From the NCBI GenBank assembly GCA_013388805.1, contig JACAEO010000392.1:1-48357 (forward strand): a stretch of DNA of 48,357 bases, written 5' to 3'. Numbering within the stretch: position 1 is the first letter of the stretch; the number at the start of each line of letters is the position of its first letter. The stretch is from Chloroflexota bacterium (lineage in GTDB: Bacteria > Chloroflexota > Chloroflexia > Chloroflexales > Chloroflexaceae). Below are positions 105 to 27,846 of the stretch, one piece after another. The notes under the pieces were generated by a model. The model made no database searches. It was not told the origin of the DNA and saw only the letters and a program-made list of their open reading frames with translations. A program made the translations under genes and the position numbers.

Positions 105-1244
105 ATGCGCCTCCGATACGCCCCGGTTGGCGGCGGCGCTGCGCTGGAGACGCTCGTGACGTATTCGCTCGCGCTCAGGCCGAGCGCGCCCGCCCTCCGA
201 CGCCCACAGCGGCTCATCCTCAAGGTCGAGGGCGAACAGGTCGCGGATGTGGAGTACCGTCCAGACCACGCTGACCTCGCACCATTCGCGCGGCTGGAGC
301 GCATGAGCTATAGCGAACTGGCTGAGGCGGCGCTTGGCTGTTGCCCGAGTTGTGGTATTGCCCACGCGCTGGCCCTCTGCCAGGCGATCGAAGCGCTCGC
401 TGCCGTGCGGCTGCCACCGCGCGCGGCCTACCTGCGGCTGGCCGCAGCAGAACTGGAGCGCGCAGCCTCCCATCTGACGACCCTGGCGGCGCTCTTCGGC
501 GCGCTGGCCCTCCCTTACCTGGCTGAGGCCTGTGCCGCCCAGGCGAGTGCCACGCGCACCGTGCTCACCAGCCTGGCCGGCAGCGCCCCCGCTGCCTGGA
601 TCGTGCCTGCCGGACTGGCGCGCGACATTACGCCCGGGGAAGTGACGGTCCTGTGGTCGGCCGCAACCATCCTGGAACGGCTCTTCCCCCTCGCCGAGCA
701 TACTATTGCCCGACGGAGCCTGCTGGCCCGCACGGTCGAGATCGGCGTGATCAGCGCGGGTGCGGCCGAGCAGTTCGGGCTGGCCGGGCCGCTCGCGCGT
801 GCCGCCGGGCTCACCGCCGATCTGCGGTGCGATGCGCCCTACGCGGCCTATGCCGATCTGACGCCCGGCCTGGTGACCCAGGAGGGCGGTGACGTGCATG
901 CGCGCATGGTGGTGGTGCTGCTCGAGGCGCTGGAGGCGCTGCGGCTGGTAGAACGGGTTGCGCGCGCCTTGCCGGATGGGCCGGTTGGCGCGTCGCTGCC
1001 GGACGAGCTCCCGGCGGGGTCGGCGAGCGCCGCGGTGGAGGCGCCACGCGGCCCGCTACGCTATGATGTGGCGAGCGACGGACGCCGGCTCAGCGCGGTC
1101 AATGTCCGCTGTGCGCCACAACTCGACCGGCTGCTGGCCAGGACGGTGCTGGCGAACGCGGCCCTGGATGATGCGGCACTGATCGTGGTCTCCACCGATC
1201 CGTGTGATGCGTGTCTGGCTGTGAGCAGCGATCAGCTGGCGTAA
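105..1244 (+). CDS. NuoD / group-4 [NiFe]-hydrogenase large-subunit-like protein, divergent
   Basis: 379-aa ORF with GAGGTGG Shine-Dalgarno-like box 4 nt upstream of the ATG. Family landmarks in the translation: CPSCGIAH (C80, C83, H87; nt 342-365) where hydrogenases carry CxxCxxxH; GLAGPLARAAGLTADLRCDAPYAAY; GDVHARM; EAPRGPL; C-terminal DPCDAC (C367, C370). An HRGxEK-type motif is not recognisable. Confidence 0.7.
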   Translation: MRLRYAPVGGGAALETLVTYSLALRPSAPALRRPQRLILKVEGEQVADVEYRPDHADLAPFARLERMSYSELAEAALGCCPSCGIAHALALCQAIEALAAVRLPPRAAYLRLAAAELERAASHLTTLAALFGALALPYLAEACAAQASATRTVLTSLAGSAPAAWIVPAGLARDITPGEVTVLWSAATILERLFPLAEHTIARRSLLARTVEIGVISAGAAEQFGLAGPLARAAGLTADLRCDAPYAAYADLTPGLVTQEGGDVHARMVVVLLEALEALRLVERVARALPDGPVGASLPDELPAGSASAAVEAPRGPLRYDVASDGRRLSAVNVRCAPQLDRLLARTVLANAALDDAALIVVSTDPCDACLAVSSDQLA

Positions 1245-1247
1245 AGT

Positions 1248-2963
1248 ATGCTCAACCCTGGCTTTATCATCCTGCTGGCTGGTGCGGCGCTCTGCTTCGG
1301 GCTGAGCCGCCTGGTGCCCACCCGGACGCTGGGCCTGGTTGCTGCGCTCGCCGCCTTGCTGGCGGCCGGCGCGGTGGCCCTGGCGCCGGCGCCGGGCGCT
1401 GAACAGGCCACGGTGGAGGTGCTCAGCATCGGCGGGGCGCGCTTCACGCTGGCGCCCGGGCTCGCAGCTGGCGAGCGCGCCGTGGCCCTGGCTCTGCTTG
1501 GCGGTGGCGGGGCGGCGCTGCTCGGGTTGGCCGGCGCGGTGGCTGCCGCTGTGCGCGGCTTTGGCACGGTGTTCGCCTGGTCGCTGCTCTGCCTGGCGGC
1601 GGTCCTGTTCAGCCTCAATGCGCCGCCGCTCTCACTGTTTCAGCCGCAGTCGTGGTCGGTGCTGGCGCTGGCCGGCTATGGGGCGTTGCGCGCCAGTGGC
1701 ACGGCTGCGCGCAGCGGGGCGCCGCCGCTCGGGGTGAGCTTCGGGCTGGCGGCCAGCGCGCTGCTGATGGTGGCCCTGCTCGTCGGCGGACCGGCCCTTG
1801 CCGCGGGCGGCAGCACGGCCTGGCCTGCGGCTGGCGCCGGGCTGCTCGCGGCCCTGGGGCTGGCAGCCTGCGCTCCGCTGATGAATGGCCGTGACGATAG
1901 CACAGAGGCCCCCGCGCTGCTGGGCGCGCTGATCTTCGGGCTGAGCGCGCCCGCAGCGGCGCTCGGCTGGCTGCTGCGGGCTGTGGCCGCGCTGCCTGCG
2001 CTGCCCGGTAGCTGGAGCACGATGCTGGGCCTGGTTGGTGGCCTGGGGGTGCTGGCATGCGGCGCGGGCGCCCTGGGCGAGCAGCGGCTGCGGGCGCTGC
2101 TCGGCTGGGCCTGGGGCAGCCAGGCCAGCCTGGTGGTGGCCGCTGTTGGCCTGCGCGGGCCGCTTGCCGTCGTGGCGGGGCCGAGCCTGCTGCTGAGCCT
2201 GATGCTCGGCGCGGTGGTCGCGGCCGCAGCCGCCGCGGGGGTAGAGCATCACACCGGCAGCGACGACTACCGCGATGGGCGCGGGGCGGTGCCGCGCCTG
2301 GTGGTCCTGGCCTGGACCCTGGGGATCCTCGCCAGTCTGGGGCTGCCGCCGCTCTGGGGCTTCTGGGGGCGGCTCTGGCTGCTGACGACGGCCCAGGTGC
2401 AGCAACCATGGCTGGTGGCGCTGGTGATGGCCGGAATGGTACTGCTGGCGCTCGCGCTGCTCGCCCCGCTGGCCGCTATGCTGACCCCGGCTGATGCGAC
2501 CCGGCCGCGCAGCAACTGGGCCGACCTGGCGCCAGTGGGGCTTGCCGGGGGCGCGCTGCTGGCGCTGGGCCTGGCTCCGCAACTGGCCTGGGCGCACTGG
2601 CCAGGCCAGTTGCCGCTGGCGCCGCTCCAGGCGCCGATCGCGCCCGTGGTGCAGGGAGCCGCCGTGGCCGCCGGGCTGGCGCTGCTCGCGCTGGGCATCC
2701 TGCTGGTCCGCGCGCGGTCGGCACGCACCCTGGCGCGCGACCCGGACGAGGAGGCGGTTCGCCTGGCCCCTGAGGCCCTGGGGGCGCTGCTCCAGCCGCT
2801 GGCCTGGCTCGCCAGGCCGGCGCCCTTGCTGCACGGCCTGTGGCTGGCGCTGCAGCTGGCCAGCGAGTTGCTGCGCATCCCGGTGGGCTTGTTCGAGCAA
2901 CGCTACTACCTGCTCGGCGTCCTCGGGGCGCTGATCACGATCATGCTGCTGATGGCACAGTAG
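1248..2963 (+). CDS. NuoL/M/N- or MrpA/D-like antiporter-type membrane subunit, degenerate
   Basis: 571-aa very hydrophobic ORF starting 4 nt after the previous stop. GLPPLWGFWGRLWLL resembles the GLPPxxGFxxK motif of proton-antiporter-type subunits. The translation contains no lysine. Confidence 0.55.
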   Translation: MLNPGFIILLAGAALCFGLSRLVPTRTLGLVAALAALLAAGAVALAPAPGAEQATVEVLSIGGARFTLAPGLAAGERAVALALLGGGGAALLGLAGAVAAAVRGFGTVFAWSLLCLAAVLFSLNAPPLSLFQPQSWSVLALAGYGALRASGTAARSGAPPLGVSFGLAASALLMVALLVGGPALAAGGSTAWPAAGAGLLAALGLAACAPLMNGRDDSTEAPALLGALIFGLSAPAAALGWLLRAVAALPALPGSWSTMLGLVGGLGVLACGAGALGEQRLRALLGWAWGSQASLVVAAVGLRGPLAVVAGPSLLLSLMLGAVVAAAAAAGVEHHTGSDDYRDGRGAVPRLVVLAWTLGILASLGLPPLWGFWGRLWLLTTAQVQQPWLVALVMAGMVLLALALLAPLAAMLTPADATRPRSNWADLAPVGLAGGALLALGLAPQLAWAHWPGQLPLAPLQAPIAPVVQGAAVAAGLALLALGILLVRARSARTLARDPDEEAVRLAPEALGALLQPLAWLARPAPLLHGLWLALQLASELLRIPVGLFEQRYYLLGVLGALITIMLLMAQ

Positions 2964-2968
2964 ACCCC

Positions 2969-3697
2969 ATGGAGATCAACTGGTTTACCATCGCGATCGG
3001 GGCAACGGCAGCAGTGGTGCTGCTGTTCCGTGACTGGCGGCTAACCTTTGCCGCCCTGCTGCTGAACTACCTGGCCCAGGCGCTGTTTCTGGCCCAGCAG
3101 CGCTTCGTGCCGCCCGACCTCGCGATCTTCGGGCTGGAGCTCAGCACCCTGGTGTTCGTCAAGCTGATCACCGGCGTCGCGGTCACCCTGATCCTGGGGA
3201 TCACCGCGCTGACCTTCTCGCGCGAGTACGGGCTCGAGAACCTCGACGAGTTTGGTCTGGCCGAGTTGCGGCGGGCCGCGCGCGCGGCGCAGCGCCAGCG
3301 CGCCAGTGCGCCATTCCAGTTCAGTGACTACGTCGTGCCCTTCTGGGCGGGCGTGCTAGCGCTCATGGCCAGCCTGGCGCTCCCGCGCATCTACCCGATC
3401 GGCCCCTCTGCGGCGGTCGACTTCGCCTGGTACTGGCTGACGCTCATCGGCCTGCTGACGATCGCCACGGCCACCGACCTGCTCAAGATCGGTCTCGGCT
3501 TGCTGCTCTGCACGAGTGCCATCGATCTGCTCTATGTCGCGGTGGTGAGCGCCCCGGAGGCCAGTGGCCTGAACGTCGTGCCCCTGGTCCTGCTCAGCCT
3601 GATCAACGTCCTGCTGGCCCTGGCGGTGGCGTATTTGAGCGGATTGCTCTACGGACGGCTCAAGACGCTTGAGTTGAGTGAGCTCTACCGGCGTTAG
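2969..3697 (+). CDS. Polytopic membrane protein, possibly NuoJ/NuoK- or MrpC-like small subunit
   Basis: I chose ATG 2969 (MEINWFTIAIG...), 6 nt after the previous stop, rather than the track start 2840, which overlaps the preceding gene by 124 nt. Several hydrophobic helices. Function assigned from context only. Confidence 0.5.
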   Translation: MEINWFTIAIGATAAVVLLFRDWRLTFAALLLNYLAQALFLAQQRFVPPDLAIFGLELSTLVFVKLITGVAVTLILGITALTFSREYGLENLDEFGLAELRRAARAAQRQRASAPFQFSDYVVPFWAGVLALMASLALPRIYPIGPSAAVDFAWYWLTLIGLLTIATATDLLKIGLGLLLCTSAIDLLYVAVVSAPEASGLNVVPLVLLSLINVLLALAVAYLSGLLYGRLKTLELSELYRR

Positions 3698-3705
3698 GCT
3701 AAACG

Positions 3706-5157
3706 ATGGCCTACCTGCTGCTCATCTTTTTCCCGGTGACGATGGCGGCGAGCACCTTCGTGCTGCGTCGCCGCACGGGGCTGGTGATCTTCGCCGCCCT
3801 GGGCACGGTGCTGGCCCAGTTGCTGATCGCTACCCAGATCCCGGTCGATGCGCCAACCCGTTTCCTCGGTATCACCCTGACACTTAGCCCGCTCAACCGG
3901 GTCTTCCTGCTGCTGTTTCTGACCATCGGCGGCTTTGCCATGGTGGGCGCCTGGCACCTGCCCCATGGCGAGAACTTCGTGCCGATCGCGCTGCTCACCC
4001 TGTCGCAGGTCTGTACCGTGCTGCTGTTGCAGGATCCGTTCATCACCACCTTGCTGCTGGCGGCGACTGGCCTGACGGCCGTGCTGGCAATCGTGGACCT
4101 GCCGGCGGGCGCGAGCAACCTGGTGGGCACGCGCGCCATTGCCGCAGCGCTGAAGTACCTGGTGCTGATGACGGTGGCGGCGGTGCTGATGTATATCGCC
4201 TTCGTGCTCACCGACATCTACCGTCCGGGCGAACTGCCGGAGCGCATCTCGCCGGCGCGGTTCATCCTGGCGCTGCTGACGGTGGGTTTCGCGCTGCGGC
4301 TCGCGCTCATCCCCTTCCACACCTGGCTCACCGACCTGGTCGATTATGCCGAGCCGCTGGTGGCCGCGTTGATCATCACCTTGCTGAATACGGCCAGCCT
4401 GCTCGTGCTGATCCTGGTCTTCCAGAGCTTTCCGACCCTGCTCCTGGAGAGTGAGGGCGCCCATGGCGTTATGCGGCTGGGCGCGATCGTCAGTGTGCTG
4501 GTGGGTGGGCTGCTGGCGGTGGGGCCGGCCCCGTTGCGGCGCACACTGGCCTATCTCATCCTCTATGGCAGTGGTATGGTATTCTATGGACTGGCGTCGG
4601 TATCGAGCATCGGGCTAGCGGGGGCGATCTTCGGGGCCCTGAACCAGACCCTGGCGGTCACGCTGCTCTTTGTGAGCCTGGGCCTGCTGGAGCGGCCGGA
4701 TGGGCGCCCGCCGGGCGTCGTGCGCCGCGACCTGTTACGCCGCTGGCCGGTGGCCGGGTCAGGGCTGCTGGTGGGCGGGCTGGCGCTGATCGGCCTGCCG
4801 CCGCTCAATGGAGCCATGAGCCAGTTGTTGATCTACCAGGCGGCGGCCGAGCGCGGCTGGATCGAGTTGCTCCCGTTGCTGCTCAGCACGCTGTTTGCCG
4901 GGCTGGGGCTGGCCCGGGTGGCGAGTGAGCGCTTGCTCGGCCCCGCCGAGGAGACCACGCCGGAGGAACCACTGCTGCTGTGGGAGATCGAGCTTGATCG
5001 CCCGGCCCAGCGGCGGCTCGAGCCCGAGCCCCGTTCGACCGCCGCCCTGACTCTGGTGCTGCTGTTGCTCTGCCTGGGGATTGGCCTCTATCCGCAGCCA
5101 CTGCTGGCCACGATTGACGAAGCGATCCGCGAACTGGCCTTTATCCGGGCGCTGTAG
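3706..5157 (+). CDS. NuoN/NuoM/MrpD-like antiporter-type membrane subunit
   Basis: 483-aa ORF. AAALKYLVLMTVAAVLMY and FALRLALIPFHTWLTDL correspond to the LKY and K-x3-PFH-WLPD motifs of this family, with Arg at the Lys position. GLPPLNGAMSQLLIY lies near the C-terminal third. Confidence 0.7.
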   Translation: MAYLLLIFFPVTMAASTFVLRRRTGLVIFAALGTVLAQLLIATQIPVDAPTRFLGITLTLSPLNRVFLLLFLTIGGFAMVGAWHLPHGENFVPIALLTLSQVCTVLLLQDPFITTLLLAATGLTAVLAIVDLPAGASNLVGTRAIAAALKYLVLMTVAAVLMYIAFVLTDIYRPGELPERISPARFILALLTVGFALRLALIPFHTWLTDLVDYAEPLVAALIITLLNTASLLVLILVFQSFPTLLLESEGAHGVMRLGAIVSVLVGGLLAVGPAPLRRTLAYLILYGSGMVFYGLASVSSIGLAGAIFGALNQTLAVTLLFVSLGLLERPDGRPPGVVRRDLLRRWPVAGSGLLVGGLALIGLPPLNGAMSQLLIYQAAAERGWIELLPLLLSTLFAGLGLARVASERLLGPAEETTPEEPLLLWEIELDRPAQRRLEPEPRSTAALTLVLLLLCLGIGLYPQPLLATIDEAIRELAFIRAL

Positions 5158-5200
5158 CATCGCGGCGCGACGTTGTGTCCTGTGGCCCCCTGAGCTTCTT

Positions 5201-6010
5201 ATGGATGTTCTGCTCGCCATCATCGCCGTACTCGTGTACCCGGGGCTGCTGACGGCCGTCGGGTTAGGGGCATTCTACGGGCTGCTGGTCGGCCAGGGCG
5301 CCACCTGGCCCGACGGGGCCGGGTTGCACGCGCGAGAGGGCCTGGCAGCCGCGGGCAGTGTGGCTGCCGCGGGGCTGGCGCTGGCGACCTTGCCCTGGCC
5401 GTGGCACCCCGCCGGCGGCGCAGGGGCGTGGCTCTGGGCCTGGACGGGCTTCGAACTGGCCTTTCTGCTGCCGCTGCTGCCACCCCTGGCGGCGGGTGTG
5501 CCCTCGGTGGTGCGCGCGGCGATCCGCGAGGCACAGCTGGGCGTCCTGGCGCGGGCAGCGATCTGGGCGGCGCTGGCGCCGGCGCTAAGCGCCCACCTGG
5601 ACTGGCGCCCCGCCACCGCGCCGGCCCATCTGCTGGCCCTGGTGGCCGCGCTGCTAGCGTTCCCGGCCGCCGTAGGCTGGGGACCGTTCGCCAGCGAGGA
5701 GCGGATCACGCCCGGCGGTGTCACGGCGGGGCTGGCCACGCCCACGCGATCGCTGGACGGCTGGGCGCGCGACGTGCGCAGTGGGGCGCTGCTGGCAGCC
5801 ATCCTGGTGGCCGGCCTGCCGGTGCGGGTGGGCCCGCCCTGGCTCGGCCTGCTCGTGGTCGCTGCCGGGGTGGCCAGCGCAGGGCTGCTGTTGCGCCGCC
5901 TTACCGGCCGCATCCCCCGGCTGACCTTGCCGGCTGCGCTGCGGCTCTGTGCGCTCTGGGCATTGCCCCTGGCCGGGCTGGCTTCGCTGGCCCTGGCGGT
6001 GATGGGGTGA
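5201..6010 (+). CDS. Polytopic membrane protein with weak NuoH/HycD-like signature
   Basis: I chose ATG 5201 (MDVLLAIIAV...) rather than the track start 5081, which overlaps the previous gene. GWGPFASEERITPGGVTAG loosely resembles the PFDLxEAESELVxG segment of NuoH. No lysine in 269 aa. Confidence 0.4.
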   Translation: MDVLLAIIAVLVYPGLLTAVGLGAFYGLLVGQGATWPDGAGLHAREGLAAAGSVAAAGLALATLPWPWHPAGGAGAWLWAWTGFELAFLLPLLPPLAAGVPSVVRAAIREAQLGVLARAAIWAALAPALSAHLDWRPATAPAHLLALVAALLAFPAAVGWGPFASEERITPGGVTAGLATPTRSLDGWARDVRSGALLAAILVAGLPVRVGPPWLGLLVVAAGVASAGLLLRRLTGRIPRLTLPAALRLCALWALPLAGLASLALAVMG

Positions 6011-6077
6011 CACGGAACGCGGGCCCGCCGCTGTCGCGGGGGACCCCGGTGATGAGGCACGGAGGCGAGGAGCAGGG

Positions 6078-7160
6078 GTGAGCGACGTCATCGAGATCGA
6101 GGAGTTGTTCAAGGCCTATGGCAGTCTGCCGGTGCTGCAGGGGTTGAGCCTGCGCGTCAGGGCGGGTGAGGTCTACGGCCTGCTGGGGCCGAATGGCGCC
6201 GGCAAATCAACCCTGATCCACCTGATGATGGGCTTTCTGCGCCCGAACCAGGGCCGGCTGCGGCTGTTCGGCTCCACCAGGCTGGAGCGCATGCGCGCCC
6301 GCATCGGCTACATCCCTGAGCGTCAACGCTACCACACCCGCTACAATGCCCGCGAGTACCTGCGCTTTCTGGGGCAGTTCAGCGGTCTGACGGGGGCCGC
6401 GTTGCACGAGCGGGTGGAGCGCGAGTTGATCGCCGTGGGGTTGCGCGATGCCGCCGAGCGGAGCCTTGGCACCTACTCCAAGGGCATGCTGCAACGCCTG
6501 GGTGTGGCCCAGGCCCTGCTCTGCGATCCGGACCTGCTACTGATCGACGAGCCGACGAGCGGTCTTGACCCGGCCGGCCAGCGTGAAGTGATCGAACTGC
6601 TCGCCAGCGTGCGCGAGCGCGGCCACACCGTGTTTCTCTGCACCCACTACCTGCAGGAAGTCGAAGTGCTCTGCGACCGGGTGGGAGTGCTGGCGGGCGG
6701 GCGCATCGCCGCTGAGGCCCACACGCGCGAGTTGCGTGAGGTGGCGAGCAGTGTGCGTATCAGTGTCAGTCCGCTCGGGGCCGAGGTGCAGGCGCAGATC
6801 GCGGCCCTGGGGCCAGGCGTGCGCTGTGAAGAACGGAGTGTGCGGCTCAGCCCGAACAGCGCCGCGCTGCAGGCAGCGGTGCTGCAGGCGCTGCTCGATG
6901 CCAGGGTTGCGATCATCGCCCTGGAGCCGCTTGAGAGCCCGCTGGAGCGGCTCTACCGCGAGGCGGTCCACGAGACGCTGCCCAGCCCGGGCGAGGCCCA
7001 TGGGCTGCCCGCTGCGCTCTGGGATCTGCCGCTCCCCGGCGAGCAGTCGCCACCAACGCCCGCCGATGGGCGGCGTGGCGAGGGCGATACGCTGCTCAAC
7101 GAACTGCTCGGCCGCAACGATCGCGACCAGGATCCGGGCGAGCGCACGCCAGGGGCGTAG
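6078..7160 (+). CDS. ABC transporter ATP-binding protein (ABC-2/DrrA-like, with C-terminal extension)
   Basis: GTG start preceded by GGAGGCGAGGAG. Walker A GPNGAGKST, signature YSKGMLQRL, Walker B LLLIDEPTSGLD, H-loop region FLCTHYL. Confidence 0.9.
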   Translation: MSDVIEIEELFKAYGSLPVLQGLSLRVRAGEVYGLLGPNGAGKSTLIHLMMGFLRPNQGRLRLFGSTRLERMRARIGYIPERQRYHTRYNAREYLRFLGQFSGLTGAALHERVERELIAVGLRDAAERSLGTYSKGMLQRLGVAQALLCDPDLLLIDEPTSGLDPAGQREVIELLASVRERGHTVFLCTHYLQEVEVLCDRVGVLAGGRIAAEAHTRELREVASSVRISVSPLGAEVQAQIAALGPGVRCEERSVRLSPNSAALQAAVLQALLDARVAIIALEPLESPLERLYREAVHETLPSPGEAHGLPAALWDLPLPGEQSPPTPADGRRGEGDTLLNELLGRNDRDQDPGERTPGA

Positions 7161-7272
7161 TCTCCGTGGCCGCTGGCCGTGGTTGGTGTTCCAACGGCCC
7201 GGGCCAGTGGCGGCCAGGATCGGGTCAGGGGCATTGGCGTCAGGAAGGCTCCCTAACCAGAGCGGACATGCT

Positions 7273-8019
7273 ATGCGTCTCCTTCGCTTTACGGGCTTTA
7301 CCCTGCTGGAGTACCTGCGCTCGGGGCGGATCGTGATCGAGATCGTCGCCCTGCTGGCCGTATTCTTCATCTTTCTGCGGCGTCCGATGAATGCCCAGTA
7401 CTTCTTCAGCGTGCTGGGCGTCTTCACGCCGGCGCTCACGCTGTACACCATGGCCGCCTTCATCGGTCTTGGCGACCGGCCGCAGGGCTATGTGCTGCTC
7501 GCGCGGGGGGTCGGGCGCGGCACCTTTTTGCTCGGCCTGTTCTTCGGCGCTTGCACCATCGTGGCGGGCGCCTACGGGCTGCTGAGCCTCGCCACGGCCG
7601 GCCTCAACCGCCCGGTCGACCTGGGTTTCGGCGACTGGCTGCTCGGCACCCTGCCACTCCTGCTCAACATCAGCCTGCTTGCCGCCCTGTTGCTCATGCT
7701 CTCGCCGCTGGTCTTTCCCACCGGCTGGCGCCTGGTCGTGCTGGGGCTGATCGCCCTGGCCTTCTCCAGCAACTTCATCGGCGGCACGCTGCTCGTCGCA
7801 TTGCCCGACGCGGTGCGCTCCGTCTTGCGGGCGCTGCAGGCGCTGCTGGGCGGGCCACTGGTGCCGGCGTTCTACGGCTTCCAGCTGGCAGTCACGCGGG
7901 ACTACAGCACGCCGACCGCGATCGCGAACATCCTGGCGCAGGCCTCACTCCTTGTCTCGCTGCTCGGCCTGTCGATCTATGCCTTTGCACGGCGAGACTT
8001 GATTTTTAGTAATCAATAG
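7273..8019 (+). CDS. Membrane protein, probable permease partner of the ABC ATPase
   Basis: ATG 7273 (MRLLRFTGFTLLEYL...). The upstream part of track ORF 6736-8019 overlaps the ABC gene in another frame. About 6 hydrophobic segments. Function assigned from position only. Confidence 0.55.
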   Translation: MRLLRFTGFTLLEYLRSGRIVIEIVALLAVFFIFLRRPMNAQYFFSVLGVFTPALTLYTMAAFIGLGDRPQGYVLLARGVGRGTFLLGLFFGACTIVAGAYGLLSLATAGLNRPVDLGFGDWLLGTLPLLLNISLLAALLLMLSPLVFPTGWRLVVLGLIALAFSSNFIGGTLLVALPDAVRSVLRALQALLGGPLVPAFYGFQLAVTRDYSTPTAIANILAQASLLVSLLGLSIYAFARRDLIFSNQ

Positions 8020-8055
8020 CAATGTGAACTGGCTCCTGGGGAGGAGAACGACCTG

Positions 8056-8796
8056 ATGAGCGCTGGCACAACCAGGGAGCGGGCCGACGGGCTGATCGCG
8101 CGGGGTCGCGCGTTATTGGAGCAGGGCGAGCTGGCGCGGGCGACCGAGCTGCTCAACCAGGCGGTCCGCCTCTACTGGGCGGCAGGCGAGCAGTACACGG
8201 CCGCGGCGCAGATCGGCAACTACGGCTGGGCGCTGCGCCGCACGGGCCGTGCAGACCTGGCGCGGCCCTACCTGGAGCAGGCAGCCACACTCTTTGCGCA
8301 GTTGGGGCTGCAGGAGTTTGCCGAGCGTCACCGGTTCGCCGCCGAGGATGCAAACCCCGGCATCACCGCAGAGTTGCTCGCCAGCCTGCCGCCAGCGGTG
8401 CGTGGGGCGTTGGAGCGGGCCGACGTGGCCGGGCTGCAGGGGGCACTGGATGCGCTGCCGATCGCCGAGCGCGCGCTCGTGCTGGAGCGACTGATGGCCG
8501 CTGGCGTCGTCACCGCGCTGGACGGCGACGACGCTGCGACGGACCACGCCGAGGCGTTGCGCCAGTTCGAGCCGCTGCTGCAGGGCATCGTGGCCGTGGC
8601 CCGTGGCGCGGAAGCCGAGCGCGCCGAGGTCGAACTGGCCCTGGAGGACGTGGAACGCAAGGGCTGGCGGCTGCGCACTGCCGCCGCGCAGATCTGGGCC
8701 GGCGAGCGGCGCCTCGCGTCGCTCACCGATGGGCTCGACGAGCTGGATCGCGCGCTGATCGCGCGCATCCTTGCCATGCTCGCCGAGGCGGCGTAG
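8056..8796 (+). CDS. Hypothetical protein with TPR-like N-terminal helices
   Basis: 246-aa ORF with GGAGGAG 8 nt upstream of the ATG. Ala/Leu/Glu-rich helical repeats. No motif I can name. Confidence 0.5.
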   Translation: MSAGTTRERADGLIARGRALLEQGELARATELLNQAVRLYWAAGEQYTAAAQIGNYGWALRRTGRADLARPYLEQAATLFAQLGLQEFAERHRFAAEDANPGITAELLASLPPAVRGALERADVAGLQGALDALPIAERALVLERLMAAGVVTALDGDDAATDHAEALRQFEPLLQGIVAVARGAEAERAEVELALEDVERKGWRLRTAAAQIWAGERRLASLTDGLDELDRALIARILAMLAEAA

Positions 8797-8906
8797 CCCG
8801 CGGGGAGTGGAACAATCTGCCTGCTGCGCTGAGAATGGTCATCTGGCAACCTCCAGTTCGATGGCGTCTCCTCAGGCGATATGGTACTGTGCGTGGAGGG
8901 CACGTA

Positions 8907-9044
8907 ATACCGCTTCTGCTTGATGGCATCGCATTGGCTCAGTTCTACACCTCCACAGCTCTACAGCGCTACAAAGTCCTGTGTGGAGCTGGAGCGCTGT
9001 GGAGATGAGCGGGACAATGCGGGATTGTCAATTCCAACTGGTAT
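8907..9044 (+). repeat. 138-bp palindromic intergenic repeat, copy A (MITE/REP-like)
   Basis: By hand alignment, roughly 92 percent identical (about 11 mismatches) to the reverse complement of nt 11188-11325. Built from CTCCACAG/CTGTGGAG and AGCGCT-centred words. The termini ATACCG...CTGGTAT are themselves inverted. Confidence 0.85.
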
Positions 9045-9052
9045 AAGCGGCT

Positions 9053-9367
9053 ATGCTGCAGCACTATCTGGATCAGATTGACTCCTGGCTGGCCCGTGGT
9101 GAGCGGGTGGCAGTGGCGACCGTCGTGCAGACGATCGGCTCGGCGCCGCAGCAGGCGGGCGCGAAGCTATTCGTCACCACGGGCGGGGCCATGGCCGGCT
9201 CGGTGAGCGGCGGCTGCATCGAGGGCGCCGTCTTTGCGGCCTGCCAGGAGGTGTTGGCGAGCGGACAGGCTCGCCTCTTGCACTTCGGTGTGGCCGACGA
9301 GACGGCCTGGGAGGCGGGCCTGGCCTGTGGCGGAACGATCGCGGTGTTCGTTGAAGTGCTGGGATAA
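9053..9367 (+). CDS. XdhC/CoxI-family N-terminal-domain protein (molybdoenzyme maturation accessory)
   Basis: 104-aa ORF. VATVVQTIGSAPQQAGAKLFV...GSVSGGCIEGAV is the typical XdhC_CoxI domain pattern. Confidence 0.75.
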   Translation: MLQHYLDQIDSWLARGERVAVATVVQTIGSAPQQAGAKLFVTTGGAMAGSVSGGCIEGAVFAACQEVLASGQARLLHFGVADETAWEAGLACGGTIAVFVEVLG

Positions 9368-12585: not shown

Positions 12586-13017
12586 GTGTTCCTGGGAGAG
12601 TTCGAGCACATCATCGATGAGAAGGGCCGTGTCGCCATCCCCGCCCGTTTCCGTGAGGAACTGGGCGAGGGATTTGTTTTGACCCGGGGCTTCGAGCCGT
12701 GCTTACAGGCCTTCCCCTACCCGATCTGGCAGCAACTCTCCGAGCGGGTCAGCAAGTTGCCGTTTGCCAGTACCGAGGCGCGTAATATGCGCCGGATCCT
12801 CTTCTCACTGGCCGCCGAGGTGGAGATTGATCGTCAGGGGCGCATTCTCATCCCGCAGAACCTGCGCGAGTATGCCAGCCTGGCCGAGCAGGTGGTGATC
12901 AGCGGGATGAACACCTACTTTGAACTCTGGTCGGGCGAGCGCTGGAACGAGCTGCAGACGACGCTCACGGAGCAGGGGGCTGCGATCGCCGAGCAGTGGG
13001 CCGATCTGGGGATCTGA
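12586..13017 (+). CDS. mraZ: Transcriptional regulator MraZ
   Basis: GTG start, 143 aa. Two MraZ half-domains: [18 protein letters not shown] and [18 protein letters not shown]. Confidence 0.9.
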
Positions 13018-13031
13018 GGGATGGACGCATT

Positions 13032-13979
13032 ATGGGCCAGCCTGAGCCGTCTGCGTTTCAGCACATTCCGGTGCTGCTGCCGGCGGTGCTCGCCGCACTA
13101 CAGCCACGGCCCGGCGCCTGCTTCATCGATGCAACGGTGGGCGGCGCGGGCCACGCCCTGGCCGTGCTGCAGGCCGCTCAGCCCGGCGGGCGGCTGCTCG
13201 GCATCGATGCCGACCCGGCGGCGCTTACGGCGGCCGCGGCGCGGCTCGGCGCTGCTGGCCTGCCCGCGGCCAGTTTCACCCTCGTCCATGGCCACTTCGC
13301 CGAGCTGGCAGCCCTGGCCCGCCAGCATGGCTTCGGCGCCGTCGATGGCATCCTGCTCGACCTGGGTGTCTCGTCCTATCAACTCGATACGGCGGCGCGC
13401 GGTTTCAGCTTCGCGGCCGATGGCCCGCTCGATATGCGTCTCGACCCGGGTGGCGGCCCCACCGCCGCCGATCTGGTGAACCAGCTGGATGAACAGGAGC
13501 TGGCTGACGTGATCTATCGCTATGGCGAAGAACGAGGTTCGCGGCGCATCGCGCGCCTGATCGTCGAACGGCGCCGCCAGGCGCCGATCACGACGACCGG
13601 CGAGCTGGCTGACCTGGTCCAGCGGGCGATCGGGCGCGGCGGGCGGGAGCGCATCCACCCGGCGACCCGCACCTTCCAGGCGTTGCGCATCGCCGTCAAC
13701 CAGGAGCTTGCCCAACTGGAGGCGGCCCTGCCCCAGGCCGTGGCGTTGCTCCGGCCCGGCGGTCGCCTGGCGGTGATCAGCTTTCACTCGCTCGAGGATC
13801 GGATCGTGAAGCAGTTCTTTCGCGCCGAGTCGGGCTATGGCGCCGGTGAGCCCCAGCACCCGCCTCGCCTGACGGTTCTGACCCGTAAGCCCATCGTGGC
13901 CGATGCGGCGGAATGCGCCGCCAACCCCCGCGCACGCAGCGCAAAGCTGCGCGTCGCCGAACGCCGCGCTGCAGCATGA
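13032..13979 (+). CDS. rsmH: 16S rRNA (cytosine1402-N4)-methyltransferase RsmH
   Basis: ATG 13032 ([16 protein letters not shown]). [46 protein letters not shown]. Confidence 0.9.
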
Positions 13980-14037
13980 GCGCTGGCGGCCCGGCGAGCG
14001 GCCGCCAGTCGTGTTTATCCGAGATAGGAGAGAGTGC

Positions 14038-14454
14038 ATGGCCGTCAACTCGCACCGCGTCTCATCGATCGCAGGCGCCCGCGCGCGCCGTCTGGCGCTG
14101 CCGCGCTACCTGCGCCTCGATGGCTCACGCTATCTGCTCGGCCTGGTGATCATGCTCTGCCTGATGAGCCTGATCGTGCTCGCCCAGACCGGCGTGGTGG
14201 CCACCAGGGGGTATGCGATCAGCGACCTGGAGGCCGAGAAGGTGAGCCTGCTCCGCGAGCGAACCCAGCTCCAGGAGCGCCAGGCGCGCGCCCACTCGCT
14301 CGAGCGCATCCGCCGCCGGGCTGAGCAGAACGGCCTGCGCCCGGTCCGCGATGGGCAGATCCGCTACCTCGAACTGCCCGCCCGCTCAGCGCCGGCCGCC
14401 CCGCCGGTCGTACCGGCCGGCCAGCCCGATGCGAGCAGCGACCGCGACGAATAG
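14038..14454 (+). CDS. ftsL: FtsL-like cell-division protein (single TM plus coiled coil)
   Basis: ATG 14038, 138 aa. One hydrophobic helix (LLGLVIMLCLMSLIVLA) followed by LEAEKVSLLRERTQLQERQARAHSLERI. Sits in the canonical position between rsmH and the PBP gene. Confidence 0.55.
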   Translation: MAVNSHRVSSIAGARARRLALPRYLRLDGSRYLLGLVIMLCLMSLIVLAQTGVVATRGYAISDLEAEKVSLLRERTQLQERQARAHSLERIRRRAEQNGLRPVRDGQIRYLELPARSAPAAPPVVPAGQPDASSDRDE

Positions 14455-14498
14455 CAGCGGCACGCGCGCCGCTTCACGACCAGGACGGTACCAGAGCG

Positions 14499-16307
14499 AT
14501 GGCTACCCGTAGCACAACCCGGCTCGATCGACCCCGCGCCTCCACCGGCGGCGCGCACGTCCGGCTTGCCCGCTGGCGGATCAATGCCATCCTGCTGCTC
14601 TGCCTGCTGCTGATCGCCCGTGTCGTCCTGCGCCTCGGCGAACTGCAGGTGCTGCGCCACGGCGAACTGCGTACCCTGGCCGAGCGTGAGATCGCCCAGC
14701 AGATCACCCTGCTGCCCACCCGCGGCATGATCACCGATCGCCTGGGCAATGTGCTGGCCATGGACGTGGACCGCGAGAGCCTGTGGGTTATTCCCGGCCT
14801 GGTCGACCAGGAGAAGGCGCCACGCCTGGCGCTGACCCTCGCGGCGCTGGTGGGCAAACCCGCCGATAGCATCCTCGATGCCCTGACGGACACGAAGCAC
14901 TACTGGCTGCCGGTGGCGCGCTGGCTCGAACCGGAGGTCGCTGCCCAGATCGAGGCGCTGAATGAGCCCGGGCTGCGCCTCGAGTACGAGCCGCGCCGCG
15001 TCTATCCTCAGGGCTCGTTTGCCGCCCAGGTGATCGGCGCCGTCAATTTTAACGGCGAAGGCATTAGCGGGATCGAGGCCTTCTATGACTCGCAGCTCAA
15101 GGGCATCACCGGGACGCTCGAGGCCGAGTTCGACGGCGCCCGCAAACCGATCGCGATCGCGCCCTCGCGCACCGTGCCGCCGCGCAACGGTATCAACATC
15201 CAGACGACGATCGACCCGCTCATCCAGTACGTGATCGAGCGTGAGTTGAAGACCGCTGTCGAGGATCACAATGCTGATGGCGGGTCGATCATCGTCATGG
15301 ATCCGCGGACGGGCGCGATCCGCGGGATGGCCAGCTGGCCCTCCTTCGATCCGAACCGCTACGGCGATTATCCGGAGGAGGTCTACGCGCGCAACCCGGC
15401 GGTCAGCAACCTCTACGAGCCGGGGAGCACCTTCAAGATGATCACCGTGGCCGCGGGGCTGCAGGCGCGGGCCTTCACCGCGGACACCGTGGTCAACGAT
15501 ACCGGGGTGGTGTTCCGCTACGGCTACTCATTGAGCAACTGGAACAGCGGCGCCAATGGCATGCTCGATTCCGAGCGGGTGCTCTACTTCTCCAGCAACG
15601 TCGGCGCATTGCAGCTCAACGAGTTGACCGGCCCCGAGCGCTTCTATGCCGCCCTGCGCGACTTCGGCTTTGGCCGGCCGACGGGTGTCGAGCTCGGTGG
15701 CGAGGAGCAGGGGATCGTCAATAGCTGGGGGAGCCCGACTTACAACGACCTGAATTTCCTCACCAACGCCTATGGCCAGGGCATCTCGGTGACCCCGCTG
15801 CAGATGGTGCAGGCGGCCGGGGCGATTGCCAACGACGGTGTGATGATGAAGCCGTACATCGTCGAACGGCGCTGCGAGGGCACGGTCTGCACCGATACCG
15901 AGCCGGTGGTGGTGGGCCGCCCGATCGAGCCCGGTGTGGCCTGGACCGTGCGGCAGATGCTGGTCCACTCGGCCAACCACTACAGCCCGGTGGTGTGGGG
16001 GCCGATCACCGGCGACTACAGCGATACATGGCTCGTGCCCGGCTATCGGGTAGGGGCGAAGACCGGTACCTCGAGCATTCCGATCGAGGGCGGTGGCTAC
16101 GATCCGAACTATACGATCGGCTCGGTGCTGGGCTTTGGCCCGGTGGACGAGGCACACTACGTGGTGCTGGTCAAGATCGACCGGCCCAAGGACGATATCT
16201 GGGGCGTGGGCACCGCCATCCCGGTCTTCTACAAGGTGATGGACGAGTTGCTGCGTTACGAGCGGATTCCTCCCGACCCGGGTCTGGTTGATCCGGGGCA
16301 GTCATAG
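14499..16307 (+). CDS. ftsI: Penicillin-binding protein 2/3 class (peptidoglycan D,D-transpeptidase, FtsI-like)
   Basis: 602 aa with an N-terminal TM helix. SxxK in GSTFKMIT, SxN in FSSNVG, KTG in GAKTGTS. Confidence 0.85.
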   Translation: MATRSTTRLDRPRASTGGAHVRLARWRINAILLLCLLLIARVVLRLGELQVLRHGELRTLAEREIAQQITLLPTRGMITDRLGNVLAMDVDRESLWVIPGLVDQEKAPRLALTLAALVGKPADSILDALTDTKHYWLPVARWLEPEVAAQIEALNEPGLRLEYEPRRVYPQGSFAAQVIGAVNFNGEGISGIEAFYDSQLKGITGTLEAEFDGARKPIAIAPSRTVPPRNGINIQTTIDPLIQYVIERELKTAVEDHNADGGSIIVMDPRTGAIRGMASWPSFDPNRYGDYPEEVYARNPAVSNLYEPGSTFKMITVAAGLQARAFTADTVVNDTGVVFRYGYSLSNWNSGANGMLDSERVLYFSSNVGALQLNELTGPERFYAALRDFGFGRPTGVELGGEEQGIVNSWGSPTYNDLNFLTNAYGQGISVTPLQMVQAAGAIANDGVMMKPYIVERRCEGTVCTDTEPVVVGRPIEPGVAWTVRQMLVHSANHYSPVVWGPITGDYSDTWLVPGYRVGAKTGTSSIPIEGGGYDPNYTIGSVLGFGPVDEAHYVVLVKIDRPKDDIWGVGTAIPVFYKVMDELLRYERIPPDPGLVDPGQS

Positions 16308-16398
16308 GCGCAGCCGTTGCGCCACCGGCGGCTATCAGCTACTTCTCATCAGGCGCGGCGTCGCCGCGGCGCATGGGAGAGGAGAACATGAACTATAA

Positions 16399-17922
16399 TT
16401 GCCCCCGGTTATCCCCTGCGATCGATGGGGTGCGGAGGGCATCGTGCTGCGATTGATCGATGTGCTCATTGGCGTGCAGCCGCGCTGGTCACGGCGTTCA
16501 CCGGAGCTTGCACCCGCCTGGCAGGCGGTGCGTTTCGGCGAAGTGGTGACCGACTCGCGGGAGGTTGAGCCGGGGACGCTCTTCCTTGCCCTGGCCGGTG
16601 AGCGTACCGATGGACACAATTTTCTGGCCGATGTGCTGGCGCGCGGCGCGCGGGGGGCCCTGGTCACCCGCGCGGCGGTGGAGGCGCGACGCACGGCCCT
16701 CGGTGGGCTCGCCCGCCCCTGGGCCATCGTCGATCCGGCCACCGGCGAGGGTCTGGCCGATACGCCGCCCGATGCGTGTCTGCTCATCGCCGTAGACGAT
16801 CCGCTTCTGGCCATCCAGCGGCTGGCCGTCTACCATCGCCGACAGCTCACGCCGACCGTTGTTGGTATCACCGGTAGTGTGGGCAAGACCTCCACCAAGG
16901 AGGTCGTGGCGGCCGTCCTGGGCCGCCGGTTCCGAACCTTAAAAAGTAAACGCAGCTATAACAGTGAGGCCACCCTCCCGACCTCCCTGCTCCGGCTCAC
17001 GCCCGACCACGAGGTCGCCGTGCTGGAACTGGGCATGTGGGCGCCGGGCGAGATCCGCTTTCTAGCGGCGCTCGCCCGGCCCCAGGTCGGGATCGTGACC
17101 AATGTCGGCCCGACCCACCTGGAGCGCCTGGGCAGCCTCGCAGCGATCGGGTGGGCCAAGAGTGAATTGCCCGAAGCCTTGCCCGCTGATGGCTGGGCCA
17201 TCCTCAATGCCGATGACCCACGCGTGCTGGCCATGGCCGCCCATACGCCGGCCCACGTCTTCACCTATGGGCTGGCCCCCGATGCCGACCTGCGGGCCGA
17301 TGAGCTGGTGAGCTTCGGCCTCGATGGGATCGGCTTCACCGCTCACCACGCCGGCGTCAGCATTGCCCTGCGCCTGCCCCTGCTCGGCAGGCATAGCGTC
17401 TATACGGCCCTGGCTGCCGCAAGCGCTGGCCTGGTGCTCGGCCTCAGCTGGCATGAGATCAGCGCTGGCCTGTGTGACCCGGAGCCCATGCCACGCGTCA
17501 AGATTGTCGCGGCTCAGGCCGGCGCGACGATCATCGACGACAGCTATAATGCCGCCCCGCTCTCCATGCTCGCCGCCCTCGATCTGCTCGCCGAGCTCGC
17601 TGGCCGCAAACTTGCCGTGCTGGGCGATATGCTCGAACTGGGCGCTACGGAACAGGCGGGCCACCACGCCGTGGGCCGGCGCGTTGCCCAGGTGGCCGAG
17701 ACGCTGATCGCGCTGGGTCCCCGGGCGCGCTGGATCGCTGAAGCGGCCCGCGAGGCAGGGATGGCTGCCGCGCAGGTGCACGTCGCCGACTGCCACGAGC
17801 AGGTCATCGCCGCCCTGCGCCCGTTGCTGGCACCCCGGACGTATGTGCTGGTCAAGGGTTCCCGCGGGATGGAGATGGAGCGCATCGTCACAGCACTACA
17901 CCGGCGACTGGAGGAGGAGTAA
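16399..17922 (+). CDS. murF: UDP-N-acetylmuramoyl-tripeptide--D-alanyl-D-alanine ligase MurF
   Basis: VVTDSREVEPGTLFLALAGERTDGHNFL, GITGSVGKTSTKE, YNSEATLPTSLL, VTNVGPTHLERLGS. The track start is TTG 16399; an in-frame GTG at 16444 is an alternative start. Confidence 0.85.
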   Translation: MPPVIPCDRWGAEGIVLRLIDVLIGVQPRWSRRSPELAPAWQAVRFGEVVTDSREVEPGTLFLALAGERTDGHNFLADVLARGARGALVTRAAVEARRTALGGLARPWAIVDPATGEGLADTPPDACLLIAVDDPLLAIQRLAVYHRRQLTPTVVGITGSVGKTSTKEVVAAVLGRRFRTLKSKRSYNSEATLPTSLLRLTPDHEVAVLELGMWAPGEIRFLAALARPQVGIVTNVGPTHLERLGSLAAIGWAKSELPEALPADGWAILNADDPRVLAMAAHTPAHVFTYGLAPDADLRADELVSFGLDGIGFTAHHAGVSIALRLPLLGRHSVYTALAAASAGLVLGLSWHEISAGLCDPEPMPRVKIVAAQAGATIIDDSYNAAPLSMLAALDLLAELAGRKLAVLGDMLELGATEQAGHHAVGRRVAQVAETLIALGPRARWIAEAAREAGMAAAQVHVADCHEQVIAALRPLLAPRTYVLVKGSRGMEMERIVTALHRRLEEE

Positions 17923-17923
17923 C

Positions 17924-19021
17924 GTGGACGTCCTACGTGCGGTGCTGGTCCAGGACATGGCCCGCGCGCTGCTGCTTGCCGCAGCCGCATTTGTGCTGAC
18001 CCTGATTGTCGGCGCATGGTACGTGCCCTTTGCCCGCCGCCACAAGCTCGGAAAACAGATCCGCAGCGATGGCCCCCAGAGCCATCTGAGCAAGATGGGC
18101 ACCCCGACCATGGGTGGGATCATGGTCGTGAGCACCGTGGTGGTGCTCACCGTGCTCTTTAACCTGGTGGACCGCTGGTCGATGCTTCTGCCGCTGGCCG
18201 TCTTGCTCAGCTTCGCCGTCCTGGGTGGCATCGACGACTGGATGACGCTCACGGGCACCCGCTCAAAGAGCTACGGCTTCACCGTACGCTACAAGTTCTG
18301 GCTGATGATGGCCGTGGCCTTCGTCGCCTCGCTGGCGCTCTACCTGCCGCCGCCGTTCGGCCTCGGCCACGAGGGCCAGCTCCAGATCCCGTTCGTTGGC
18401 ATGCGTGATATTGGCGTCTTCTTCATCCCCATCGCGACGCTGATCATCGTCTTCATCTCCAACGCGGTGAATCTCACCGATGGCCTCGATAGCCTCGCTG
18501 GCTGGAACCTGACTCTGGCCTTCGGCGCCTATGGCGTGATGACCTTCCTGGCCGAGCCGCGGCTGACCAACCTGATGGCCTTCTGCTTTACCCTGGTGGG
18601 GGCCTGCGCGGCGTTCCTCTGGTACAACGCCCACCCGGCCCAGGTGTTTATGGGCGACCTGGGGGCGCTCGCCCTCGGCGCGACGCTGGCCGTGGTGGCG
18701 CTGCAATCGCAGCAGTGGCTGCTGCTCCCCGTGGTCGGGATCGTCTTCGTGGTCGAGGCGCTTTCGGTGCTGCTGCAGACCGGCTATTTTAAGTGGACCC
18801 GGCGGCGCTATGGTGAGGGCCGCCGCATCTTCAAGATGGCGCCGCTGCACCACCACTTCGAGCTCCTCGGCTGGAGCCAGGTCCAGGTGACCCAGCGCTT
18901 CGTGCTGATCGCGGCGGTGGCGGCGATGGTCGGCATCTCGCTGGCGATCACCTTCGCTACGCCGGCGCCCCAGCGGGCCGAACAGAACCCGACCACGCAG
19001 GTGGTCGAGGGCGGACCCTGA
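17924..19021 (+). CDS. mraY: Phospho-N-acetylmuramoyl-pentapeptide transferase MraY
   Basis: GTG 17924 directly after the murF stop, preceded by GGAGGAGGAG; ATG 17957 is an alternative start. GTPTMGG, NAVNLTDGLDSLA, MGDLGALALG, APLHHHFE. Confidence 0.9.
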   Translation: MDVLRAVLVQDMARALLLAAAAFVLTLIVGAWYVPFARRHKLGKQIRSDGPQSHLSKMGTPTMGGIMVVSTVVVLTVLFNLVDRWSMLLPLAVLLSFAVLGGIDDWMTLTGTRSKSYGFTVRYKFWLMMAVAFVASLALYLPPPFGLGHEGQLQIPFVGMRDIGVFFIPIATLIIVFISNAVNLTDGLDSLAGWNLTLAFGAYGVMTFLAEPRLTNLMAFCFTLVGACAAFLWYNAHPAQVFMGDLGALALGATLAVVALQSQQWLLLPVVGIVFVVEALSVLLQTGYFKWTRRRYGEGRRIFKMAPLHHHFELLGWSQVQVTQRFVLIAAVAAMVGISLAITFATPAPQRAEQNPTTQVVEGGP

Positions 19022-19028
19022 TCCGCCG

Positions 19029-21301: not shown

Positions 21302-21329
21302 CGCTCGCCCCGGTGCCAAGGGGGGACCA

Positions 21330-27829: not shown

Positions 27830-27846
27830 GGCAGGGACCCACGCAG

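Follow-up and report, generated by a model that had tools for sequence, protein, structure and literature searches.

Antiporter-like subunits without the canonical lysine/glutamate relay in a conserved, hydrogenase-like gene cluster of Chloroflexota

Proton-pumping models of complex I, Mrp and Mbh rest on a conserved chain of Lys and Glu within the antiporter-like subunits. What is to be made of a complex-I-like module whose membrane subunits contain almost no lysine? The question is raised by a stretch of 48,357 nucleotides from a Chloroflexota bacterium of the Chloroflexaceae (GenBank assembly GCA_013388805.1, contig JACAEO010000392.1, positions 1 to 48,357; hereafter the window), in which a tightly packed run of plus-strand genes, from position 105 onward, encodes a homologue of hydrogenase large subunits and NuoD, followed by membrane proteins of 571, 242, 483 and 269 aa. 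An earlier note on this DNA had counted 0, 1 and 0 Lys in the 571-aa, 483-aa and 269-aa proteins, and our recount from the open reading frames (ORFs) gave exactly these numbers. We find that the real core of the observation lies elsewhere than in the count: the functional Lys and Glu are replaced in a conserved, selected complex, and the replacement extends to a clade of Chloroflexota and to a stand-alone trio of genes.

The 571-aa and 483-aa proteins are homologues within family PF00361. The latter is a clear member, with MbhH, NdhD, NuoM and NuoN as its best solved relatives in the PDB; the former passes weakly, and both lie above the Pfam cut-off (Table 1). The two families align with each other over the whole core (hhalign probability 96.9%), and scores of both proteins against all NCBIfam equivalogs are far under the cut-offs. 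The family hidden Markov model of the 571-aa protein matches E. coli NuoL, NuoM and NuoN at 4e-14 to 9.5e-14, which gives the mapping of its sites. The E. coli nuo operon served as reference, and the site mapping agrees across NuoL, NuoM, NuoN and the PDB chains. The residues that we take to be canonical were located in the E. coli sequences as E133, K158, K217, K247, K295 and K395 of NuoN, E144, K173, K234, K265, H348 and E407 of NuoM, and E144, K169, K229, H334, H338, K342 and K399 of NuoL. Canonical roles are those of an ion pair, a central Lys and a terminal Lys/Glu (PMC5938582).

Having tabulated the canonical Lys/Glu columns against NuoL/M/N, as the earlier note had suggested, we find that equivalent charged, titratable residues do not occupy all channel positions of the aligned proteins. 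In the 483-aa subunit, aligned with 72 relatives, the Lys of transmembrane helix (TM) 7 is replaced by R198, which is Arg in 72/72. The earlier note had read this substitution correctly: FALRLALIPFHTWLTDL is present at residues 195-211, with an invariant Arg, and the PFHxW motif of the broken helix TM7 is kept as P203-F204-H205-x-W207. The TM5 Glu site is A120, in a column of S34, A12, L11, G8 and W5 with no acid. The TM8 Lys site is N228 (Asn in 70/72), the TM10 Lys site R278 and the TM11 His site Q314 (Gln in 68/72). At the TM12 Lys/Glu site the window has Q373, in a column of K41, H13, R10 and Q8. The one Lys kept is that of TM6, the KY/KF motif: K150, in ALKY, is the sole Lys of the protein, and its column reads K66, H5, R1. 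No conserved acidic residue is found in the TM5 helix segment, the nearest being the invariant D131 at the helix end; we did not adopt D131 as a shifted TM5 acid, as it lies 11 residues downstream and its placement needs a three-dimensional model.

The 571-aa subunit departs further from the canonical pattern. Its sites are S137 (TM5), L161 (TM6), L205 (TM7), P235 (TM8, 60/60 of the family), Leu (TM11) and R375 (TM12, 49/60), and of the TM6 Lys and PFHxW features P210 alone is kept. Neither subunit has the pair of TM7 Lys and TM5 Glu/Asp, the central Lys/His of TM8 or, in the window, the terminal Lys/Glu of TM12. The two antiporter-like subunits are without the Lys/Glu relay of complex I, Mrp and Mbh; the 483-aa subunit has a polar, mostly non-titratable axis (R198, N228, Q314, Q373), and the relay sites of the 571-aa subunit are hydrophobic. 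The earlier note had proposed either a non-pumping or scaffold derivative or one that uses Arg/His chemistry. The canonical relay is indeed not replaced by equivalents at every position, and the appeal to Arg/His holds only in part, the relevant positions being R, N, Q and Q in one subunit and hydrophobic in the other.

The label complex-I-like is too general for the module: its head resembles that of group-4 [NiFe] hydrogenases (closest to HycE/MbhL), without a small subunit in this lineage and on an Mrp-like trio. The profile of the large-subunit family finds E. coli HycE (7z0s_E, 1.8e-63) and then P. furiosus MbhL (6cfw_L, 7.9e-59) as its best PDB matches, both over full length; NuoD chains align with it only to about position 285. 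The product of the first gene is nearer to HycE/MbhL than to NuoD, and it aligns through both Cys motifs. The [NiFe] ligand motifs are present, with C80, C83 and H87 in L1 (CxxCxxxH) and C367 and C370 in L2 (DPCxxC). The family consensus of L1 is RICGxCSxAH; the clade of the window, which has no NuoB-like gene, carries the conserved variant CPxCxxAH. The second Cys of L1, C83, is replaced sporadically in about 12 relatives, some of them with NuoB.

In Roseiflexaceae, Kouleothrix/Ribeiella, several Chloroflexaceae and Herpetosiphonaceae the 483-aa and 269-aa genes are separated by a NuoB-like gene. In these sister lineages it codes for 114-132 aa with four cluster Cys (GSCGGCD ... GRCAIDG ... 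GCPP). The protein, as seen at L004:11595-11960, L090:9445-9831 and about 30 other loci (L001-L090 being the ids of relatives' contigs), is far smaller than NuoB, EchC and MbhJ. In the window the gap between the two genes is 43 bp, and tblastn found no NuoB-like ORF in the 48 kb or in the operon, the genome beyond the window not being covered. Ferredoxin-like subunits with two [4Fe-4S] clusters (NuoI/HycF/EchF) and NuoC-like subunits are absent from all loci examined. We considered that NuoB, NuoC or NuoI genes might be hidden past the window edge and rejected this: the operon starts with the large-subunit gene, and divergent, unrelated genes lie upstream in L085 (an ENA contig of the same organism as the window) and in Oscillochloris trichoides. 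The [4Fe-4S] small subunit thus appears to have been lost in this lineage. Wherever a NuoB-like gene is present, the TM12 site of the 483-aa protein is Lys, and Q, H or R are found there only in loci where no such gene was detected. Loss of NuoB, change of L1 and loss of the TM12 Lys are probably one or few events and not independent replicates.

For the 269-aa protein the NuoH-like identity claimed in the earlier note is right at the level of fold. Its AlphaFold2 model, made on 35 homologues, has a predicted local distance difference test score (pLDDT) of 90.6 and a predicted TM-score of 0.91; each of its 50 best Foldseek matches to PDB structures is NuoH, ND1, NdhA, MbhM, MbsM or HycD, E. 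coli NuoH giving the highest TM-score (0.75; E = 1e-4), and the model has the eight-helix NuoH fold. In sequence, the window protein matches neither PF00146 nor any other model, one of its 35 relatives matches PF00146 (2e-5), and a PDB profile search with the family found nothing. Alignment with E. coli NuoH by hhalign yields only a weak C-terminal stretch, in which the PR...W..LP motifs are paired. Remnants only are seen of the acidic/Arg motifs of NuoH, namely GPFxxE (F163, E166) and the same C-terminal PR...W..LP.

The 242-aa protein has no match in Pfam or NCBIfam, and every one of its 392 homologues is named hypothetical. Its AlphaFold2 model reaches a pLDDT of 78; a whole-chain Foldseek search found no PDB fold match, and hhalign against E. 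coli NuoK and NuoJ was insignificant. Residues 153-240 weakly match MbsG (6u8y_G) at a non-significant E = 0.13, and the three C-terminal helices are possibly MrpC/NuoK-like. Among the columns of the family K173 and K232 are found in 71/71, K65 in 67/71 and D186 in 69/71, and D151 is invariant. The gene is the best conserved of the cluster (about 72% mean column identity), and its product carries the conserved lysines of the cluster and a membrane Asp, D186.

How well is the cluster maintained? A scan of species-representative genomes returned 78 loci, and about 75 Chloroflexales loci carry the cluster, in the conserved order D-like, 571, 242, 483, (NuoB-like), 269, ABC ATPase. One locus, L072, filed under a Singulisphaera (Planctomycetota) metagenome-assembled genome (MAG), has a Roseiflexaceae-type cluster nearly identical to L067-L071, and its assignment is probably a binning error. 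For the 483-aa protein, 272 homologues were found; among the 120 listed the near-full-length ones have 482-490 aa and are all from Chloroflexales, and fragments of 346-471 aa are also present. That the ORFs might be pseudogenes or frameshifted in close relatives had been raised in the earlier note: in almost all of the roughly 75 loci the subunits are whole and keep their length. When the window is compared pairwise with six relatives, dN/dS lies between 0.07 and 0.51 (483-aa gene 0.07-0.16, 242-aa gene 0.10-0.15, D-like gene 0.24-0.32, 269-aa gene 0.26-0.41, 571-aa gene 0.32-0.51), values that are rough, with dS of 0.7-1.5 near saturation. The cluster is under purifying selection, and the 483-aa and 242-aa genes are the most constrained.

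Since the small subunit and the titratable relay are both missing, we read the locus as encoding a hydrogenase-derived complex that most likely does no canonical redox-driven proton pumping in this organism, and we give this a rough probability of 0.55. On this reading a Chloroflexia-specific complex would have arisen from group-4 [NiFe] hydrogenases of the Ech, Mbh and formate-hydrogenlyase kind, the stock of complex I. It would be built of a HycE/MbhL-like large subunit and a minimal NuoH-fold subunit, joined to the Mrp-like trio of 571, 242 and 483 aa. With no small subunit, no path by which electrons could reach or leave the metal site would be evident, and with no titratable Lys/Glu there would be no canonical lateral proton transfer. 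The remaining membrane function, for instance conformational coupling or the passage of ions along a polar axis lined with water, may be carried by the strongly conserved pair of the 483-aa and 242-aa proteins, the 571-aa and NuoH-like proteins being mainly structural.

Several points weigh against this reading. A NuoB-like gene could be located elsewhere in the genome. The Cys pairs of the large subunit are kept even in the clade without NuoB, as a conserved variant motif, and because they are kept in a clade-specific form, they suggest a metal site that is still under selection, with some redox or sensing role. The alignment around TM5 is only moderately confident, to 1-2 residues, and the saturation of dS noted above has to be counted here too. 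Finally, protons could be transferred through water along Asn/Gln paths with the conserved K150, H205, D131 and E329.

The last point leads to the alternative that the complex is still energy-converting, as a redox-driven or redox-linked ion translocator with a non-canonical path, made of R198, an Asn/Gln water wire, the four residues just named and the charges of the 242-aa protein, and with its electron partner supplied in trans. All relay positions of the 483-aa protein are polar and highly conserved, as would fit such a path, and the Cys ligands of the large subunit are retained; the ancestral and sister versions have the four-Cys NuoB-like subunit and the TM12 Lys; purifying selection is strong, with D186 and K173 of the 242-aa protein conserved in its NuoK/MrpC-like segment. 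Yet no small subunit is present in the operon or window and no NuoI- or NuoC-like subunit at any locus examined, there is no acid at TM5, TM7 has a non-titratable residue, and hydrophobic residues take the relay sites of the 571-aa subunit. The sporadic replacement of the second L1 Cys, seen also in relatives that have NuoB, is a further difficulty. We regard a working translocator of this kind as unlikely, if to be taken seriously.

It may also be asked whether the deficit of Lys is simply compositional, Lys having drifted to Arg in a GC-rich, Arg-preferring lineage whose complex pumps protons normally. The significance of the deficit hinges on the background chosen. With the membrane proteins MraY and FtsW of the window (1.73% Lys) as the measure, the 1323 aa of the three subunits should contain 23 Lys and contain 1 (P = 2e-9); with the window's soluble enzymes of lowest Lys content (about 0.4%), P is only 0.03. 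Of the 2798 residues encoded by the eight genes at 105-8796, 9 are Lys (0.32%); elsewhere in the window the figure is 1.74%, and the window mean is 1.47%. This Lys-poor stretch takes in soluble proteins and an ABC transporter: the neighbours of the three subunits include the NuoD-like protein (1/379), the ABC ATPase (3/360), the ABC permease (0/248) and a TPR-like protein (1/246). Some housekeeping enzymes are equally poor, for example a Mur ligase of the division/cell-wall (dcw) cluster (24347-25783; 2 Lys in 478 aa), and the flanking genes of relatives are Lys-poor as well. The earlier note had set the GC effect aside on the ground that FtsZ, PFOR and FtsA of the same window carry many Lys, which is true but understates the effect, these three being the Lys-rich end of the genome. 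The raw count in the three subunits is therefore about half background, and in good part reflects a lineage that prefers Arg (26 Arg in the 571-aa and 28 in the 483-aa protein) and a Lys-poor region, because the poverty is regional and includes soluble and ABC proteins.

The rest is not composition. Even where the GC of the locus is 49-52%, each orthologous subunit has 0-7 Lys, so Lys poverty is a trait of the family and not an effect of GC; whatever the GC level, the three membrane subunits of 32 loci contain 0.07-0.8% Lys and the flanking genes 1.3-3.5%, and E. coli NuoN, NuoM, NuoL and NuoH have 1.6-2.6%. Nor are the key sites all changed from Lys to Arg: E to A/S, K to N, K to L, K to P and H to Q are unlike GC-driven drift of K to R. 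GC pressure alone is not behind these replacements, since the high-GC complex I of M. smegmatis keeps every canonical Lys in NuoM and NuoN. Lys is not excluded from the cluster either, as the adjacent 242-aa protein keeps K65, K173 and K232. Besides, Arg is unable to shuttle protons at physiological pH. We hold a purely compositional origin to be very improbable. Two things add up to the low overall Lys, a GC-rich background that prefers Arg and the disappearance of the few functionally obligatory lysines; what the earlier note described as subunits almost devoid of lysine is real as site-specific replacement, and the overall count is largely that of the lineage and region and not specific to the subunits.

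Could the operon be a decaying remnant, on its way to being lost once the hydrogenase function became dispensable? NuoB loss, L1 divergence and TM12 Lys loss do coincide in the clade of the window, and dN/dS is higher (0.24-0.51) for the large subunit, the 571-aa and the NuoH-like proteins. In a low-coverage Oscillochloris MAG (L057, about 4x) the 483-aa and NuoH-like genes are each split into two ORFs; these splits are likely sequencing frameshifts and not real pseudogenes. Decay is hardly credible, however, for five ORFs that are intact and length-conserved across the NuoB-less clade, in dozens of genomes that lie a dS of about 1 apart, with dN/dS near 0.1 for two genes and with the clade's own conserved motif variants.

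Replacements of this kind are met outside the cluster as well. An exhaustive profile search of 1.84 billion representatives gave 85 matches at E <= 1e-30, and we aligned the best 150. Among these the Lys-poor clade comprises dozens of clusters at 50% identity, of 445-500 aa, with 0-9 Lys (most 0-5) and 12-28 Arg; nearly all its members have Arg, Leu or Trp at TM7 (P0391 has Lys), and at TM12 most have Arg, some Lys/His and a few a neutral residue. Canonical matches among the same 150 have 10-47 Lys, and almost all of them have Lys at TM7, TM10 and TM12. The named members of the Lys-poor clade belong to Herpetosiphonaceae, Chloroflexia and other Chloroflexota.

In other Chloroflexota the three genes occur as stand-alone trios, without NuoD, NuoB, NuoH or ABC genes (L087:7645-11464, L088:7399-11359, L089:5681-9398). 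The first gene codes for 543-656 aa, the middle one for 202-230 aa and the last for 452-487 aa; the first is antiporter-like at least in L088 (PF00361 match), and the middle one is homologous to the 242-aa protein in L087 (2e-16) and L088 (3e-14). Neighbours of the trios vary, and include histidine kinases, SelB and glycosyltransferases. Since these three loci carry the trio alone, the conserved core is thus an Mrp-like trio (MrpA-like, small subunit, MrpD-like), to which a minimal hydrogenase head appears to have been added in Chloroflexia. We would go a step further tentatively, and at somewhat less than even odds: a clade of Chloroflexota may have given up the Lys/Glu relay and, with a hitherto undescribed partner of 200-240 aa, formed a three-subunit machine of another transport or coupling chemistry, recruited in Chloroflexia by a minimal [NiFe] head as a new group-4-like subgroup. 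One might think of a water wire gated by a fixed charge, or of an anion or some other ion being translocated.

That the module is an accessory or coupling part of the adjacent ABC transporter, e.g. a membrane scaffold or a sensor regulating the exporter, is an idea for which we know of no precedent and which we think most improbable: at practically every Chloroflexales locus the ATPase and permease genes do come right after the NuoH-like gene, often 0-20 bp apart, and have the same Lys-poor composition, but the Herpetosiphonaceae cluster has no ABC genes after it and neither do the stand-alone trios, so the association is secondary and arose within Chloroflexales.

Among known systems the membrane-bound [NiFe] hydrogenases of group 4 (Hyc, Mbh) come closest in parts: homology of the large subunit runs from end to end and takes in both Cys motifs, a subunit of NuoH/HycD/MbhM fold and PF00361 antiporter-like subunits are present, and sister lineages have a four-Cys NuoB-like subunit. 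Unlike in these hydrogenases, no ferredoxin-like (NuoI/HycF/MbhN) or NuoC-like subunit accompanies the cluster, this lineage is without the small subunit, the NuoH-like protein, at 269 aa, is short and is recognised by no sequence model, and there is an extra 242-aa subunit; HycC and MbhH retain the TM5 Glu and the Lys of TM7, TM8 and TM12, which the antiporter-like subunits here are without. With the Mrp (Mnh/Pha) antiporter the cluster shares a gene order that mirrors mrpA-(B,C)-D and a trio that stands without a redox module in other Chloroflexota; the resemblance of the C-terminal half of the 242-aa protein to MrpC/MbsG is faint and non-significant. However, Mrp has seven subunits (MrpA-G) against three genes here, MrpE/F/G were not seen in the gene calls of L087-L090 or in the cluster of the window, and the Lys and Glu that are canonical in MrpA and MrpD do not occur. 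With the membrane arm of complex I (NuoH, NuoL/M/N) it has folds and families in common, as well as PFHxW with H205 and the TM6 Lys, but no quinone-module context, no separate NuoA, NuoJ or NuoK genes, and replaced relay residues.

Ehr complexes, defined by a large subunit without the Ni-Fe-coordinating Cys (PMC6349859, after Marreiros et al. 2013), are likewise group-4-related, of uncertain activity and equipped with Mrp-like subunits. In contrast to them, the window protein and most of its relatives have all four Cys, and the definition does not apply. Large subunits of type 4 and Ehr have been recorded in the Chloroflexi supergroup at the level of a large-subunit survey (bioRxiv 10.1101/2021.08.23.457424); in the literature we found no description of this cluster, of Ehr or group-4 hydrogenases in Chloroflexia, or of the Lys-less antiporter-like clade.

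The cluster offers a natural, widely conserved and selected family in which the Lys/Glu chain is replaced, one subunit being polar with a fixed Arg and the other hydrophobic. Its three states, namely the trio alone, the trio with head and small subunit, and the trio with head and without small subunit, make a comparative system for separating the residues needed for ion translocation from those that serve architecture, and for following the gain and loss of redox modules. The 242-aa protein adds an uncharacterised, highly conserved subunit family. For genome reconstructions of Chloroflexales it should be noted that automated labels such as "formate hydrogenlyase subunit 3 / MnhD" and "proton-conducting transporter" are no evidence of proton pumping.

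Table 1. Genes and sites of the cluster, in window coordinates
Feature	Position	Strand	Basis or equivalents
Group-4 [NiFe]-hydrogenase large-subunit/NuoD homologue, 379 aa, 1 Lys, first gene of the operon	105..1244	+	Pfam Complex1_49kDa E = 1.4e-28; HycE/MbhL profile matches
L1 metal-ligand motif C80-P-S-C83-G-I-A-H87	342..365	+	aligns with HycE RVCGICGFAH
L2 metal-ligand motif D365-P-C367-D-A-C370	1197..1214	+	aligns with HycE DPCYSC
571-aa NuoL/MrpA-like antiporter-like subunit, 0 Lys	1248..2963	+	PF00361 E = 9.2e-7; hhalign; family HMM
242-aa conserved membrane protein without described family, 3 Lys	2969..3697	+	392 homologues; no Pfam/NCBIfam match
483-aa NuoM/N/MrpD-like antiporter-like subunit, 1 Lys	3706..5157	+	PF00361 E = 8.3e-18; PDB matches
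K150, only Lys of the 483-aa subunit, TM6	4153..4155	+	E. coli NuoN K158, NuoM K173, NuoL K169
R198 at the TM7 Lys site, 483-aa subunit	4297..4299	+	NuoN K217, NuoM K234, NuoL K229, MbhH K225
N228 at the TM8 Lys site, 483-aa subunit	4387..4389	+	NuoN K247, NuoM K265, MbhH K256
Q373 at the TM12 Lys/Glu site, 483-aa subunit	4822..4824	+	NuoN K395, NuoM E407, NuoL K399, MbhH K409
269-aa NuoH/ND1/HycD-fold protein, 0 Lys	5201..6010	+	AlphaFold2 model and Foldseek
ABC-transporter ATPase (DrrA/GldA/NodI-like), 360 aa, 3 Lys	6078..7160	+	directly 3' of the NuoH-like gene in Chloroflexales
248-aa membrane protein, presumed ABC permease, 0 Lys	7273..8019	+	gene calls in L001, L085, L003; no Pfam match

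For the last of the five ORFs a 309-aa reading from a TTG at 5081 was rejected in favour of the ATG at 5201 on the lengths of orthologues, and gene calls in L001 and L085 also back the latter. The GC content of the window is 65-73%, with the stretch 105-8796 the highest (0.70-0.73). A Chloroflexaceae MAG contig in NCBI (GCA_053484995.1) has as its first base the first base of the window. In the NCBI MAG contig L001 (8796-12490) about 3.4 kb with TRAP-type transporter genes (NMT1_3, DctM) lie between the genes for the TPR-like and XdhC/CoxI proteins; the segment is missing from the window (8796-9053) and from L085, which is either a strain-level indel or an assembly difference. Further downstream, at 12586-31356 on the plus strand, the window holds a complete dcw cluster with MraZ, RsmH, PBP, Mur ligases, MraY, FtsW, MurG, FtsA and FtsZ.

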